A stretch of DNA of 63,485 nucleotides, the filler included, from Octopus bimaculoides (Eukaryota), in NCBI RefSeq assembly GCF_001194135.2. It is 8 parts of 8 records of this genome, joined end to end, with 100 filler letters (N's around TTAATTAATTAA, not from the genome) between each part and the next. Parts side by side here need not be neighbours in the genome. Positions count along the whole stretch, not along the records: positions 1 to 22,084 come from NC_068992.1; positions 22,185 to 30,509 come from NC_068997.1; positions 30,610 to 37,913 come from NC_068996.1; positions 38,014 to 41,059 come from NW_026350103.1; positions 41,160 to 47,310 come from NC_068986.1; positions 47,411 to 58,389 come from NC_068984.1; 2 more parts are not named here. One strand, given 5' to 3'. Under the pieces are notes generated by a model that saw nothing but the letters and a program-made list of their open reading frames with translations, searched no databases and was not told where the DNA came from. Below, in pieces: positions 10,511 through 56,410 of the stretch (position 1 is its first letter; each line of letters begins with the position of its first letter). Made by a program: the position numbers and the translations under genes.

Positions 10511-10915
10511 ATCCAAAATTAAACAATGGAGTAGATAAAATCCAGACAACGTATGTTTCATAGCTAGCAGGACCTCGGAAATAGGAACTGCCCAAACGAG
10601 GGATAATTCCCTAGCTACTCGTCGGGCCAAAGATACCTTAATTAGATGAAGTTTTCATTGTCGATCGTCACGGGATCTCATGTTGACTCGCAGGAGATCC
10701 AATCGTTAAGGTGTGTAAAGCATTCGATTGGATCTCTTGCGAGTGAACGTGGGATCCGTTGACGATAATGTAAACTTCATTTCATTAAGGTACCTTTGGC
10801 CCAACGTGTAGCTAGCGGATTACCCCTCGTTTGAGCAATTACTACTTCTGAGGTTCTGCTAGCTATGAAACATATGTATCCTGGATTTTATCTACTCCAT
10901 TACCTCATTTTGGAT
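10511..10915. repeat. ~405-bp imperfect palindrome (Penelope pLTR-like) carrying a hammerhead-like motif
   Basis: arms 10511-10705 and 10725-10915 roughly 80% complementary by eye, 19-nt loop. Confidence 0.9.
10545..10628 (-). ncRNA. candidate type-I hammerhead variant (CCGACGA core)
   Basis: minus strand: GGC-CCGACGA-GTAGCTAG...CTAGCTAT-GAAAC-ATAC-GTT-GTC; stem I only 3 bp. Confidence 0.5.
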
Positions 10916-11451
10916 CTCGATCTCTCTCTCTTTCTCTTTTTTTCTCTCTCTCTCTCGATATATATATATATATATATATATATATATATATATATATATA
11001 TATATATATATATATATATTACAAACAAAAATACAATTGCAGAAAAATAAAAATTAAATTAAATTAAAATAAGAAAAAGTACATACAAAAGTACCAGCAA
11101 GTGCCAGCCAAAAGGTTCTTGATTTCTATCATTCATGACTGCATGATAAAGAACTTAACTTTGCAACCGTAGATTGATAAATATAAATGAAGATCAATAA
11201 AGATTTTACGGTTCAATTCATGCTACAAATGTTTCAATGGCATAGTTATTTATTTGCATGCAATGTATTACGACATCCTTATTTCATATGCTAGATTACT
11301 TGCTATTTCATCACGCATATGTGAACTATCGTGTAACAAAAACCAATCAATATTTATACATATATATGTGTGTGTGTGTGTATTTGTGTGTATGTGTCTT
11401 ATATATTCTCTGTATATTATATATTCTAACGAACTGCTCCTTTTTAAACAG

Positions 11452-11613
11452 GTGTCAATCATCCCCTGGGTTCCGCCGGCAGTATTCTCGGGTGGACTCT
11501 TCCTCGCAGGTGTATTGGTGCTACTTTTACCAGAGACACGCGGTAGACAGATGCCTCAATGTATTGATGATGTGCGAGCATGGTCATGTAAAAAGAAATC
11601 TGAAGATCAATGA
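11452..11613 (+). CDS. SLC22-like terminal exon (TM12, LPET motif, stop)
   Basis: tttttaaacag| acceptor, phase 0; VSIIPWVPPAVFSGGLFLAGVLVLLLPETRGRQMPQCIDDVRAWSCKKKSEDQ*. Confidence 0.92.
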   Translation: MSIIPWVPPAVFSGGLFLAGVLVLLLPETRGRQMPQCIDDVRAWSCKKKSEDQ

Positions 11614-11835
11614 AGTTCCTTCTGTCTCAATCCAACCTACCTTGTTGTTTTCTTATCGTTATTTTTATTGTTGTTATAATTGTTGTTATTGTTGTTGTCG
11701 TTGATGTTATTGTTGATGCTGTTGTTGTATTGCTGTTGCTACGAGGTTGAGACCTAATCGAGCAGTAATAAGAATCAACAGTATATATGATCTGTAATCT
11801 GCTGCAAAGAAAATATTGTATTTCCTACTTGCTGT

Positions 11836-11841
11836 AATAAA
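11836..11841 (+). terminator. candidate polyadenylation signal of the SLC22-like gene
   Basis: first AATAAA seen ~220 nt after the stop, followed by T-rich sequence. Confidence 0.45.
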
Positions 11842-12090
11842 ATTAATATTGATAGAAAAATATATCTGTTCATTTCATTCATTATTTATTTCGACATGTA
11901 TGTCTGTTTTTCAGTCAGTCTATCTATCTATCTATCTATCTATTTATGTTGCTTATTTTTGGTAGTTTTTTTTACTTATTTAGTCCCTCGATAGCGTGAG
12001 GCATTAATACACAGTTAATGCCCTTTATATATAATTAAATATATCTATCTATCTATCTATCTATCTATCTATCTATCTATCTATCTATCC

Positions 12091-12202
12091 GTCGGCTAGT
12101 TGTCCGTTGGGTAGTTGTCTGTCGGGAAGTTGTCCGCCAGGCAGTTGTCCATCGGGCAATTGTCCGTTGGGCAATGGCATGTCGGGCAGTTGACCTAAAA
12201 CC
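12091..12202. repeat. 15-bp minisatellite, 7 units, ending in TAAAACC
   Basis: GTCGGGCAGTTGTCC consensus at exact 15-nt spacing from 12091. Confidence 0.9.
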
Positions 12203-12434
12203 GTTTTCTATACCAATCATGGACTACTCGAAGCTTACTAACTGCCTACACCTACATCATTGGATCTTACAATTACATATCAATATATATACATAACACA
12301 CACACACACACACACACACACACACACACACACACACACACACATTCACACGTATATATGTGTATGCATGTATGTGTGTGTGCATGCATATGTGTGGGGT
12401 GTGTGGTGCTGGTAATCTTTTTCAGCTTAGCAGA

Positions 12435-53300: not shown

Positions 53301-53580
53301 CACCACCACCATCAACGGTAGACAACAACGTCTTCAGCACCACCACCACTACCGCCACTACCATCACGTTAAGCTGCTGCATCTCCACCGCCGCCGTTAT
53401 CGTTTACTGTCTATTCCCCGTCCCCATCTGCATCAGCATCAGCATCAGCATCAGCATTAACTCCATCGTTACATTATCGCCACCACCACCACCATCATCA
53501 TCATCAGCACAACCTACAACACCATCGCCACCATAAACAACAACCACAACCACAACAACAATAACCATCAACAGCAGCCG
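50330..53580. repeat. cryptic (ACC/ATC/ACT)n simple-sequence field
   Basis: direct inspection; spans a gap. Confidence 0.9.
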
Positions 53581-53834
53581 ATAAAGCAAGAGGAAAAGAG
53601 AAAGAAGAAAGAAGAAAAATAATAAATCCCACTCTCTCTCTCTCTCTTTCTGTCTCTGTCTCTCTCTCGCTCGCTTGCTCATCCAATTTCTGCCACTATT
53701 CCTCCTTCGCTAAACCCATATACTCTTTCCTTCTTCCATCTTCTCATACACTCTTTCTTTCTTCTACTTACTCTCACTCTATCTTTTCCCCATCTCTTTC
53801 TCTCTCTCTCTCTTTCTTTCTCTCCAAACTATAA

Positions 53835-53935
53835 TCAGTTAAACCTAACTCTATCACTAAGGTCGGTTTGCCGTAGCTCACCACTTGGACTTAACGCTTC
53901 CTCTCTTACAGCTTAAACTTTTAAAAACGGTGAGT
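53835..53935 (+). other. candidate small exon (18-nt microexon 53912-53929, or end of a first non-coding exon)
   Basis: CTTAAC branch-like site + ctctcttacag| acceptor, acg|gtgagt donor; Inr-like TCAGTT at 53835. Confidence 0.3.
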
Positions 53936-55620
53936 GCTATATATATATATATAGATGTATATATATAAATGTGTGTGCATATACATGTATATATATAAAT
54001 GTCGCTTTCTATATATTTATTTGTTTATTTGGTTATTTATATCACTTTCTAGCTTCGGGTTTTTTTTTCTACCTTTTTCTCATTTCCTCCCTGCGCGCAC
54101 TTTCGTTAAAGATATATATAAACTATATTAGCGGTCTCTTTTATATATATATATATATATATATATATATATATATACGCACATCTGTAAGGGAGTCTAA
54201 ATATAATTTCTACCAATAAATATATATCAATATATATATATATATGTTGTGTATGTATATATGTATATATATAGGTGTTCTGATATATTTTGTACATATG
54301 CAATTAAGTATTATATATACACACAAGCGTAGTTATAGAATTATAAATTCATATATTTATATGAATTTATTTATTCATTGAAGTACGGAGATTACTTTGT
54401 GTTCTTCTCAACGCTTCGAAACTAAGTGATAATAACAGATGGGTATAATTTAAGCTCTTCATCAAAATAATTAATTGCATTCTACTTTTTGGTACTGAGC
54501 GGTTTTGTCTTTACTTTTTTTGTTTTTTTTTTTTTGTTTTTTTTACCTTCTTGTTTATTAAACTCAAAACCTGACACGCATCATATTAGACATACTTATA
54601 TTAACACTCGCGCGCACACTCATATATTGAGTACCTCATCTCCGTTCCGTAATTATTCCTTGGCGAGAATGACACAAAACAAAACGCACACATAGACATA
54701 TGTACACACACACTATATGTATATAGATTGGTAAATGTTTTTGTTTTTCATTCCCTTTCGAAATTATCCCTAATTTTGTGGTATAGAGTTTTTTGCTGCT
54801 CTTTCTAGCGGGTTAGATGTCCTATTATAGGCATCTCTGTATTTTAAATATATATGTATATATATATATATATATATATATATATATATTCACTNNNNNN
54901 NNNNTTCACGCGTGTGTGTGAGTGTGTCTTGTTTATTATAAATATTTCGGTTGCTCTTTCGGAACTCCGAAGTTTTCTTTAAGATAGGCTATCGTCTTAG
55001 CCAAAGTCCAACAGTGATTAAGTTCACTAATGGTCGAAGGGATTCCATATGTGGTCACCCGTTCTCACTTTGGAACATTTGCACATCTAGATTAATTACA
55101 TCATGCCGTGTTTCATCTCACGCAGTGTATGATTTGATGGAGTTTAGGCTGTTTTTTTTTTTTTTTGCTAGATGGTATATTAATTAATTAACACGTTAGA
55201 GCTGAAAAAAAAAATTTTCTAAGTTGTTGATTAACCCCAGTTCAGTCATAATAGTGTTTATCTCTGTCCAAAAAGCGTTCTAGTCATGACCATTCCATCG
55301 TGTTTTAAGCCAGAGTGATAATTCAGGGAAAACAGTTACCAGAATATGCGATTCATGGGAGATTCGACTGTTATTTCTAGCAACTACTTTATAAGTATCC
55401 TCGTTGGTTTTTGTGAGTTCTGTTTAAATTGCATCGTAGAAACTTCGCTGTCACAATTAACAACAGCAGTAACAACAACGCCACAACAAAAGACTTTAAA
55501 TATTACCTCACATGTGATCAGATATTAATGTTTGTTTTTATGTTCAGTAATAATAAAAACAATTTTACATTAATCTGGTGGGTTACTCTATACTTTTGTA
55601 GAGTGCAAATTTATTATACT

Positions 55621-55736
55621 TATACAACTATGTTGTTGGTAGTGACTTCGAAGCTTGGGCCAGCTAAGCCATCATCGTCCGATGATGGGTTGGCTCGCCA
55701 AAATTTCAAAGTCACAGTCGACAACATCCATGTATA
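55621..55736. mobile_element. palindromic MITE (Tc1/mariner-like TATACA..TGTTGT ends)
   Basis: arms fold back around tc; related shorter copy at 56936-56991. Confidence 0.65.
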
Positions 55737-56380
55737 AGAATTACACATATATATATATATATATATATATATATACATACATACATGGATATACGGTGAC
55801 ATACATCCCAAAATGTATGTATATATTGCCATGTAATACATAAATACATCGTCAAAGGTTGATAGTAATTTAAATATATGTATGTATATATATATATATA
55901 TATATATATATATATATATATATATATATATATATGTATATATAGCATCACTGCAAATCGAACTTGTAGGTAAACACATGGCTATATTGATATAGATATT
56001 TACATACATACATACATACATACATACATACCCATGCATACACACATAGAATTTATATAGCGTACATATCTATTTAAACACATATATAAACACACAACAT
56101 ATGCACACACTTATAATACATAGCATTTATATATCTATGTATACATACACAAAAGCATCTATCTATCTATCTCCCTATATATATATATATATATATATAT
56201 ATATATATACGTATGCACATGTTATGTACTTAGGCGAGCAATTGTGTATTCTAACACATGTATACACACATTATATTCATTTTAGTAACTAGCTTTCTAC
56301 TCACGTTCTTACATAATGTGCGTGTTACATAACACATCCACAAAATATCTATCTGTTTGTCTGTCTGTCTGTCTGTCTGT

Positions 56381-56410
56381 CTGATGATCGCTTTCGTGAA
56401 ACACCGAGTA
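56381..56410 (+). ncRNA. hammerhead core remnant
   Basis: CTGATGA-TCG-CTTT-CGT-GAAAC-ACCGA-GTA; stem I replaced by (CTGT)n. Confidence 0.4.

Follow-up and report, generated by a model that had tools for sequence, protein, structure and literature searches.

Type I Hammerhead Motifs in an Octopus bimaculoides Sequence: Probable 3′ Stubs of Truncated Penelope-Like Elements

Introduction

Do the hammerhead ribozyme motifs scattered in the genome of Octopus bimaculoides define a class of small mobile elements of their own, or are they remains of a known retrotransposon? The question was raised by a 63,485-nucleotide (nt) stretch of assembly GCF_001194135.2, called here the window, which joins eight parts of eight records end to end, is AT-rich, contains many microsatellites and includes 6,193 N. 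Eight motifs with the order of a type I hammerhead had been noticed in it. The initial annotation attributed them to a diverse set of short non-autonomous, retrozyme-like units possibly mobilised by Penelope-like elements (PLEs). We conclude that the eight motifs, which form five families, are most probably the 3′ stubs of 5′-truncated PLE insertions, four families being likely of the Hydra clade and one of the classical type. This kind of element is already described (Craig et al. 2021), and the system would be ordinary, the debris of a described retrotransposon clade.

Eight Hammerhead Motifs in Five Families

All eight motifs announced by the initial annotation are present. They are cited here by the position of C3 (the initial annotation used their low-coordinate ends). 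The cores are CCGACGA at 10625 (minus strand) and at 47457 (minus) and 47500 (plus), CTGATGA at 20195 (plus) and 56381 (plus), and CTGAAGA at 42862 (plus), 43953 (minus) and 48303 (plus). Type I order and stems are found in all of them, with C instead of U at position 4 (C4 and U4, respectively) in three copies. Stem I is lost (1 base pair (bp)) in 43953 and 56381. The stem III palindrome is perfect, or mismatched at its centre, in 20195, 42862, 47457, 47500, 48303 and the mirror copy at 10801; it carries one substitution each in 10625 and 56381 and a deletion in 43953. A U.U apposition occupies the base of stem II in 43953, 48303 and 56381.

A strict type I descriptor, requiring stems I and II of at least 3 bp each and accepting C or U at position 4, matched 4 times in the window against a mean of 0.003 (maximum 1) in 300 local dinucleotide shuffles. 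With a looser descriptor there were 7 matches, against a mean of 0.29 (maximum 3); one of its matches, 24537 (minus), looks like a chance hit. Motif frequency is well above that of dinucleotide-shuffled sequence by either count. Motifs 20195 and 42862, with bulges in the basal part of stem II, were for that reason overlooked by the descriptor script; inspection by eye confirmed both, as did folding, which forms stems I and II in each. Judged on sequence, the eight motifs are genuine type I hammerhead sequences.

Pairwise alignment compared with shuffles groups the eight motifs into five families, A to E; the remaining 19 of 21 pairs are at null level. The earlier description of several unrelated families needs correction in that some motifs are kin: 47457 and 47500 align with 56381 (family A; the score is 84 and the null maximum 34, with 66% identity over 137 nt, the alignment continuing ~100 nt past the motif), and 43953 with 48303 (family B; 79% identity). 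Family C is 42862, family D is 10625 with its decayed mirror copy, and family E is 20195. Three inverted repeats with ribozyme 3′ ends pointing outward had also been reported. All three exist, at 10511–10915 (arms 81% identical), 42770–42957 (arms of ~60 bp, 94%) and 47411–47546 (94%), and two whole cores are found only in the last: the mirror core at 10801 has decayed to CCAACGT, and at 42775 the left arm begins at GAAA.

The family A palindrome (47411–47546) carries C4 hammerheads at 47424–47463 (minus) and 47494–47535 (plus), and its left end meets an N gap. On the right it continues as a 3′ part with tail (47547–47634, plus), which includes a predicted hairpin at 47573–47594 followed by (TG)n; pieces of contigs span 47485–47636. 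The diverged relative at 56377–56512 (plus) has a U4 core, is truncated at stem I and lies between (TGTC)n and (TATC)n. Family C consists of an inverted arm (42715–42831, minus), which starts from GAAA, is ~55 nt longer than the other arm (the “tail”) and has a predicted tail hairpin at 42746–42768, and of a direct arm (42857–42953, plus), which holds the hammerhead (42857–42917; core CUGAAGA, stem III ACUCGGAGU) and ends in (TA)n. A candidate 12-bp target duplication with 1 mismatch, of low complexity, brackets the two arms (42703–42714 and 42954–42965). The tail is seen on one side in family C, where the arms are unequal, and in family A the right arm reaches 47634 while the left arm is hidden by the gap. 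Microsatellites lie at most 11 nt from 5 of 9 element ends (set by eye); 7% of background positions have one within 10 nt.

Family B copy 1 (43894–44036, minus) has a decayed hammerhead (43898–43958) with U.U at the base of stem II and no stem I. Copy 2 (48219–48362, plus) has the best-kept hammerhead of the window (48297–48358), with a 6-bp stem I and stem III ACAAUUGU, and an N gap hides its 3′ part. A 120-nt repeat (82%) adjoins both copies, at 44331–44452 (plus) and 48029–48148 (plus), with opposite orientations in relation to the hammerhead; possible identities are an upstream pseudo-long terminal repeat (pLTR), an inverted arm, or the product of a mis-oriented contig across the 44040–44328 gap. 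The segment 43735–43870, a high-copy sequence with ~20 times the depth of the adjoining family B motif that ends in (TA)n, is a candidate for the family B 3′ end or for a separate repeat. A “CxH” upstream of family B was considered as the end of an endonuclease and rejected because neither profile nor tblastn searches (see below) give a match there.

The family D fold-back insertion (10511–10915) lies in the last intron (9635–11451) of a host transporter gene. Its hammerhead (10545–10628, minus) has a 3-bp stem I, a C4 core (CCGACGA), an 8-bp stem II with a long loop and stem III ACATACGT, with cleavage predicted after 10548; the decayed mirror copy (10798–10881, plus) keeps a perfect stem III palindrome, ACATATGT. 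The palindrome centre (10690–10745) has near-perfect arms around a 19-nt spacer, and a small hairpin in the left flank (10445–10500) may be a family D tail. Family E (20192–20233, plus) is a classical minimal PLE hammerhead with CUGAUGA and an extra A, a G10.1–C11.1 pair and a loop-less ACGU stem III. The minimal PLE hammerheads of Cervera 2014 (PMC4209133) share these traits: the same extra nucleotide after A9, G10.1–C11.1 and a loop-less palindromic stem III. The other window families differ from them in longer stem III palindromes and non-standard 10.1–11.1 pairs.

Abundance, Variation and Transcripts

The DNA contigs of two organisms, A (X1) and B (X14), were compared with two stretches of the window at 80% likeness, a setting under which more diverged copies, among them the U4 relative at 56381, drop out. 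Over the motifs the summed word depth lies between 6e4 and 1e6; on the unique stretch 43420–43689 it is ~90 (X1). This depth is not equal to copy number; the motif families likely have thousands of copies. Family A depth peaks over the 40-nt motif, at up to 840,000, and drops to ~1,500 (~0.2% of the core) at the palindrome centre. Other centres are found among the joints listed (47451–47516, 47453–47513, 47455–47505, 47458–47494, 47459–47510), and contig pieces join the motif to the 3′ part ending near 47634. The rarity of the 47411 centre and its variability between copies indicate that the palindromes likely form during insertion. In family C the ~55 extra bases of the left arm are high-copy and absent from the right arm, which ends in (TA)n.

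Majority letters mend the defects of the window copy. Stem I of the 47500 copy is restored by 47534 C>T (91% in both DNA runs), its stem II by 47508 T>C (69% and 67%) and the family A tail hairpin by 47578 G>A (96% and 92%). Among the variants listed, family A varies at N7 (65%, 42%), at the centre of stem III (31%, 45%) and in the hairpin loop. The claim that Penelope-type hammerheads with a palindromic stem III are abundant here, and conserved at the family level, is thus sustained by the reads.

No RNA data set is listed on record as containing 42700–43990. Transcripts were searched in ~6% of each of three raw cDNA runs, whose libraries may miss circles. Mate orientations are about equal and the unique stretch has zero depth. 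No site where many molecules start or stop was found in these samples; an active PLE likewise lacks RNA-seq ends at its cleavage site (PMC11167929). The RNA-to-DNA depth ratio of the motifs is 0.07–0.33 of that of a neighbouring short interspersed element (SINE). The latter is a SINE-like repeat of ~170–230 nt with a summed depth of 2.4e7 in X1 and many window copies (42970–43205, 12654–12877, 20433–20612, 22336–22838, 44708–44898, 6951–7463 and others), which we presume to resemble the octopus OK/OR SINEs.

Relation to Penelope-Like Elements

The only coding trace of a PLE in the window is a broken C-terminal GIY-YIG endonuclease remnant at 27748–28002 (minus). The initial annotation had placed a PLE endonuclease at 27690–28060, and its relatives and profile bear this out for the narrower interval. 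Translated with X at its stop codons, the remnant had 282 relatives at E ≤ 0.001 in an exhaustive protein search and no match in a word-index protein search; Pfam gave no match for it or for ten of its relatives. A hidden Markov model (HMM) built from 150 relatives matches it with E = 5.6e-26 and matches nowhere else in the window. Searches by tblastn with four full Hydra open reading frames (ORFs) from related loci matched this segment only (E = 2e-6 to 2e-5). Five of six inspected relatives (one cut short) are PLE endonucleases, in which motifs of the CxxC and CxH type flank a conserved E/N. Three have a CxCx5C linker, the longest also has a reverse transcriptase (RT) with DKT, and P0060 is unrelated. 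DKT, the CxCx5C linker, CxxC and CxH are the marks of the Hydra clade according to Craig et al. 2021 (PMC8557442), and the remnant is a Hydra-type PLE endonuclease. No hammerhead is found downstream of it.

The motif and such ORFs are joined in metagenomes. A pattern of the family A type that accepts Y at position 4 and fixes stems I and III retrieved at least 120 metagenome loci, 80 of them with long flanks, and 0 viral contigs. The endonuclease HMM matches 16 of the 120 listed loci, always on the strand of the motif, which lies 100–415 nt downstream of the endonuclease in 13 and upstream in 3. In L064 and L044 the ORFs comprise 722 and 721 open codons, include DKT, CxCx5C, CxxC and CRH, and lie ~195 nt upstream of the motif; 11 further loci have the motif behind endonuclease ends. 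A Hydra-type ORF upstream of the motif is thus found in related loci and at none of the window copies. In L054 (307–2648) and L017 the hammerhead precedes a full Hydra-type ORF (714–724 codons), representing the 5′ pLTR of a partial tandem.

Among the loci listed, all 14 with two motifs are head-to-head and 0/14 tandem, with centres of 3–38 nt and mostly a tail on one arm; they include L024, a perfect palindrome of more than 300 bp that may be an assembly artefact. The other 106 comprise 12 with a partial inverted copy, 54 with none and 40 with too little upstream DNA. In the commonest family, 3′ ends fall 25–34 nt past the motif in 42 of 65 and 95–104 nt past it in 16 of 65 listed loci. In stem II, the only helix free in the pattern, 3 of 4 pairs show two-sided changes when 24 sequences are compared (83% of cells paired), a count inflated by relatedness. 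A covariance model of 24 family-A-type motifs gave significant matches in the window to its three training copies only.

These features recur in published elements. The commonest metagenome family is by eye near-identical to the coral element Hydra-2_Amil, which agrees by eye with family A in stem I (ctgt/acag), in stem III (actc-N-gagt) and in its cleavage base, A. Many Hydra rows of Craig et al. 2021 share by eye the U.U at the base of stem II with 43953, 48303 and 56381, and Hydra-clade PLEs, including Hydra-1/2_Ajap, have U.U or G.U there, actc-N-gagt or comparable palindromes as stem III, a motif ~100–200 nt from the 3′ end and microsatellite neighbours. A Hydra element is already listed for O. 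bimaculoides (Files S1/S2, PMC8557442). The core of Hydra-1_Obim (“ctgaagag atgtc”) resembles by eye the start of 42862, and no window motif is identical to it. Penelope-13_HM has an inverted 5′-truncated copy with a second hammerhead, like the window inverted repeats. The window differs from the 26 Hydra-clade hammerhead rows of File S2, all U4, in the C4 of subfamily A1 (47457/47500) and of family D, and in motifs without an attached ORF. Families A to D are likely Hydra-clade hammerheads. A literature search on octopus and hammerhead ribozymes gave, among the matches listed, Craig 2021 alone as relevant. A 2026 repeat annotation of O. vulgaris reports 31 recently active Penelope-like families, and the word ribozyme is absent from its main text.

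Origin of the Motifs

PLE insertions are 5′-truncated and often consist of an inverted copy with a tail (PMC8557442, PMC3846280); minimal PLE hammerheads are mostly single truncated copies, with some opposite-strand pairs 100–700 bp apart (PMC4209133). Reverse transcription by a PLE RT begins inside the RNA, which is uncleaved, at two sites between which the tail lies, and the hammerhead depends on the protein (PMC11167929); in the PAc element the ORF begins inside the hammerhead (Frangieh et al. 2024, PMC11167929). By analogy with this biochemistry, the RT/GIY-YIG protein would nick AT-rich or microsatellite DNA and begin reverse transcription inside the uncleaved template, ~30 or ~100 nt downstream of the ribozyme, the tail being the stretch between the two start sites. 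Copying would mostly halt before long, in many cases close to the structured ribozyme. A short copy begun at one start site and another begun at the second could then be joined head-to-head into a palindrome of variable centre with a tail on one arm. Penelope and PAc share with the elements studied here head-to-head inverted repeats, a one-arm tail and two 3′ end positions; their tails have 30–40 nt, against ~55–70 nt with a bulged hairpin in the window families (Arkhipova et al. 2013, PMC3846280; PMC11167929). The ribozyme would be selected in the master element, acting as a dimer or with the help of protein, and most stubs in the genome would be passengers in decay. When a palindrome is transcribed by read-through, its second core comes out antisense; the RNA would therefore fold into a long hairpin, and no dimer partner would be provided in cis.

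Several results weigh against a PLE origin or narrow its basis. HMM and tblastn searches over the window find no RT or endonuclease frame joined to any motif, and the endonuclease remnant is 7 kb from the nearest one. The Hydra assignment of families B, C and D is a by-eye resemblance of motifs to a published table; the read data cover families A to C; family A resembles the metagenome loci only across the 40-nt motif; and these loci come from a pattern with fixed stems I and III, whose matches are dominated by few families. Rfam scans gave no hammerhead family at E ≤ 10 over 42750–44039 and 47411–48362, nor was one among the 150 of 293 matches listed for the whole window; what was matched were microsatellites or hairpins, by microRNA models. 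This blank, together with the loss of stem I in two copies, is what speaks for chance matches in a low-complexity genome. That explanation has a negligible probability: it is refuted by the shuffle counts and by the family-majority letters that restore the stems, and the two-sided changes of stem II also contradict it. Rfam thus misses the motifs while a curated microRNA model half-matches the palindromes, which creates a risk of mis-annotation.

The motifs could instead belong to short non-autonomous PLE derivatives, for which Hydra-clade proteins would copy in trans a non-coding master of ~140–250 nt that comprises hammerhead and tail. Depth drops steeply just 5′ of stem I, loose ends cluster at 47463–47468 and 47494, A1 and A2 (56381) share a ~140-nt extent at 66% identity, the window motifs have no adjacent or physically linked ORF, and publications describe non-autonomous Chlamys PLEs as well as pLTRs acting in trans (PMC8557442, PMC3846280). 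Yet related loci of families with full ORFs truncate near stem I likewise, and loose ends upstream of stem I yield a similar consensus from both arms, which implies that longer copies exist; we consider it unlikely that some of the families are such derivatives. The retrozyme-like label of the initial annotation fares worse. The defining traits of retrozymes are units in tandem and plentiful circular RNA (PMC7229834; bioRxiv 10.64898/2026.07.22.740005), neither of which is seen for the window families, and retrozymes lacking long terminal repeats (non-LTR) would here be tandem units of 150–450 nt cut by the hammerhead into linear and circular RNAs. They resemble our families as non-coding repeats with type I hammerheads and a proposed PLE origin (same sources), they are known in a mollusc, the mussel (PMC7229834), and N gaps beside 44036, 47411 and 48362 could conceal tandem copies just as the RNA libraries may miss circles. 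Against this stand the lack of tandem pairs in the related loci, the absence of any same-strand, same-family neighbour within 8 kb in the window, and samples of three RNA runs with neither pile-ups of molecule ends nor enrichment over the SINE. With no tandem arrays and no RNA end pile-ups the label is unsupported, and since the same motif stands behind full Hydra-clade ORFs and the palindrome centre is not fixed, a distinct class finds no support either; the probability of retrozymes is very low. Slightly lower still is that of DNA elements of the miniature inverted-repeat transposable element type, with fixed terminal inverted repeats and incidental hammerhead-like strings, suggested by the three fold-backs of 136–405 bp and the candidate target duplication of family C. 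The variable and rare centres already largely refute it, the motif is tied to RT-endonuclease ORFs elsewhere, five motifs, to judge from the assembly, lie outside inverted repeats, and the arms are unequal because the tail is on one of them.

The C4 Core and the Predicted Tail Hairpin

Within the preferred reading as truncated PLE insertions, novelty may be limited to the C4 core of an abundant family and to the predicted tail hairpin. U4 accounts for 3% of DNA depth at 47456 in both organisms (16,408/500,239 and 7,774/279,240), so that C4 is the majority state of this family A subfamily. In RNA reads U4 amounts to 19/118 and 32/68, a share that probably stems from few loci. Family D, a single insertion, has C4 in both arms. 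All 134 motifs in the listed metagenome loci are U4 (134/134), and C4 occurs in 0 of the 44 minimal-hammerhead alignment rows compared, which were gathered with descriptors of fixed core (PMC4209133). The U4C change occurs in viroids and reduces activity in vitro (PMC3088659). A literature search on U4C or CCGAUGA hammerheads gave nothing with a PLE title.

A GAG(C/T)AC box is found 56–67 nt downstream in 42 of the 117 metagenome motifs with enough downstream DNA (loci listed). In 38 of these 42 a 4-base complement lies at most 28 nt upstream of the box, and 34 match a descriptor of a bulged hairpin, their upper stems being varied. The descriptor matches twice in the window, 40 and ~44 nt after the family A and family C motifs, which is at chance level (shuffle mean 1.17, P(≥2) = 0.33); as it was written after both window sites had been seen it is partly circular, and only position and flanking letters count. 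Keyword searches of the literature gave no description of a tail hairpin.

We advance tentatively, and with somewhat more doubt than confidence, that an octopus Hydra-clade PLE lineage may have multiplied into thousands of copies whose hammerhead core bears the U4C change and whose three stems are all retained. A naturally occurring ribozyme that is slow or assisted by protein would then have become fixed at the family level, a variant unreported for PLEs in the literature searched, and a bulged tail hairpin (NCUC...GAGN), conserved from coral-type to octopus elements, would mark the protein-binding or RT-start signal of the clade. Descriptors fixed on U4 would overlook a very abundant octopus family. 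The U4 and C4 sister families and the tail hairpin offer a handle on whether PLE hammerheads must cut and on what marks internal RT starts.

Other Features of the Window

The host gene that carries the family D insertion in its last intron encodes an organic cation transporter (340–11610, plus) and has six exons inside the window, the exon at 337–744 being 100% identical to the O. bimaculoides transporter. One of its introns contains an open frame (1662–2015, minus) that, we assume, resembles the N-terminus of a mariner transposase. A remnant of a non-LTR reverse transcriptase extends across an N gap at 38146–39210 (Pfam RVT_1, E = 1.3e-14). Two long open frames of similar make-up, 31629–32639 (minus), with a weak zinc-knuckle match, and 34160–34952 (plus), are possibly ORF1 of a long interspersed element, and the segment 30737–30795 is related to 34584–34642. 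Finally, an imperfect palindrome (75%) occupies 55616–55741, with no hammerhead core detected in it.

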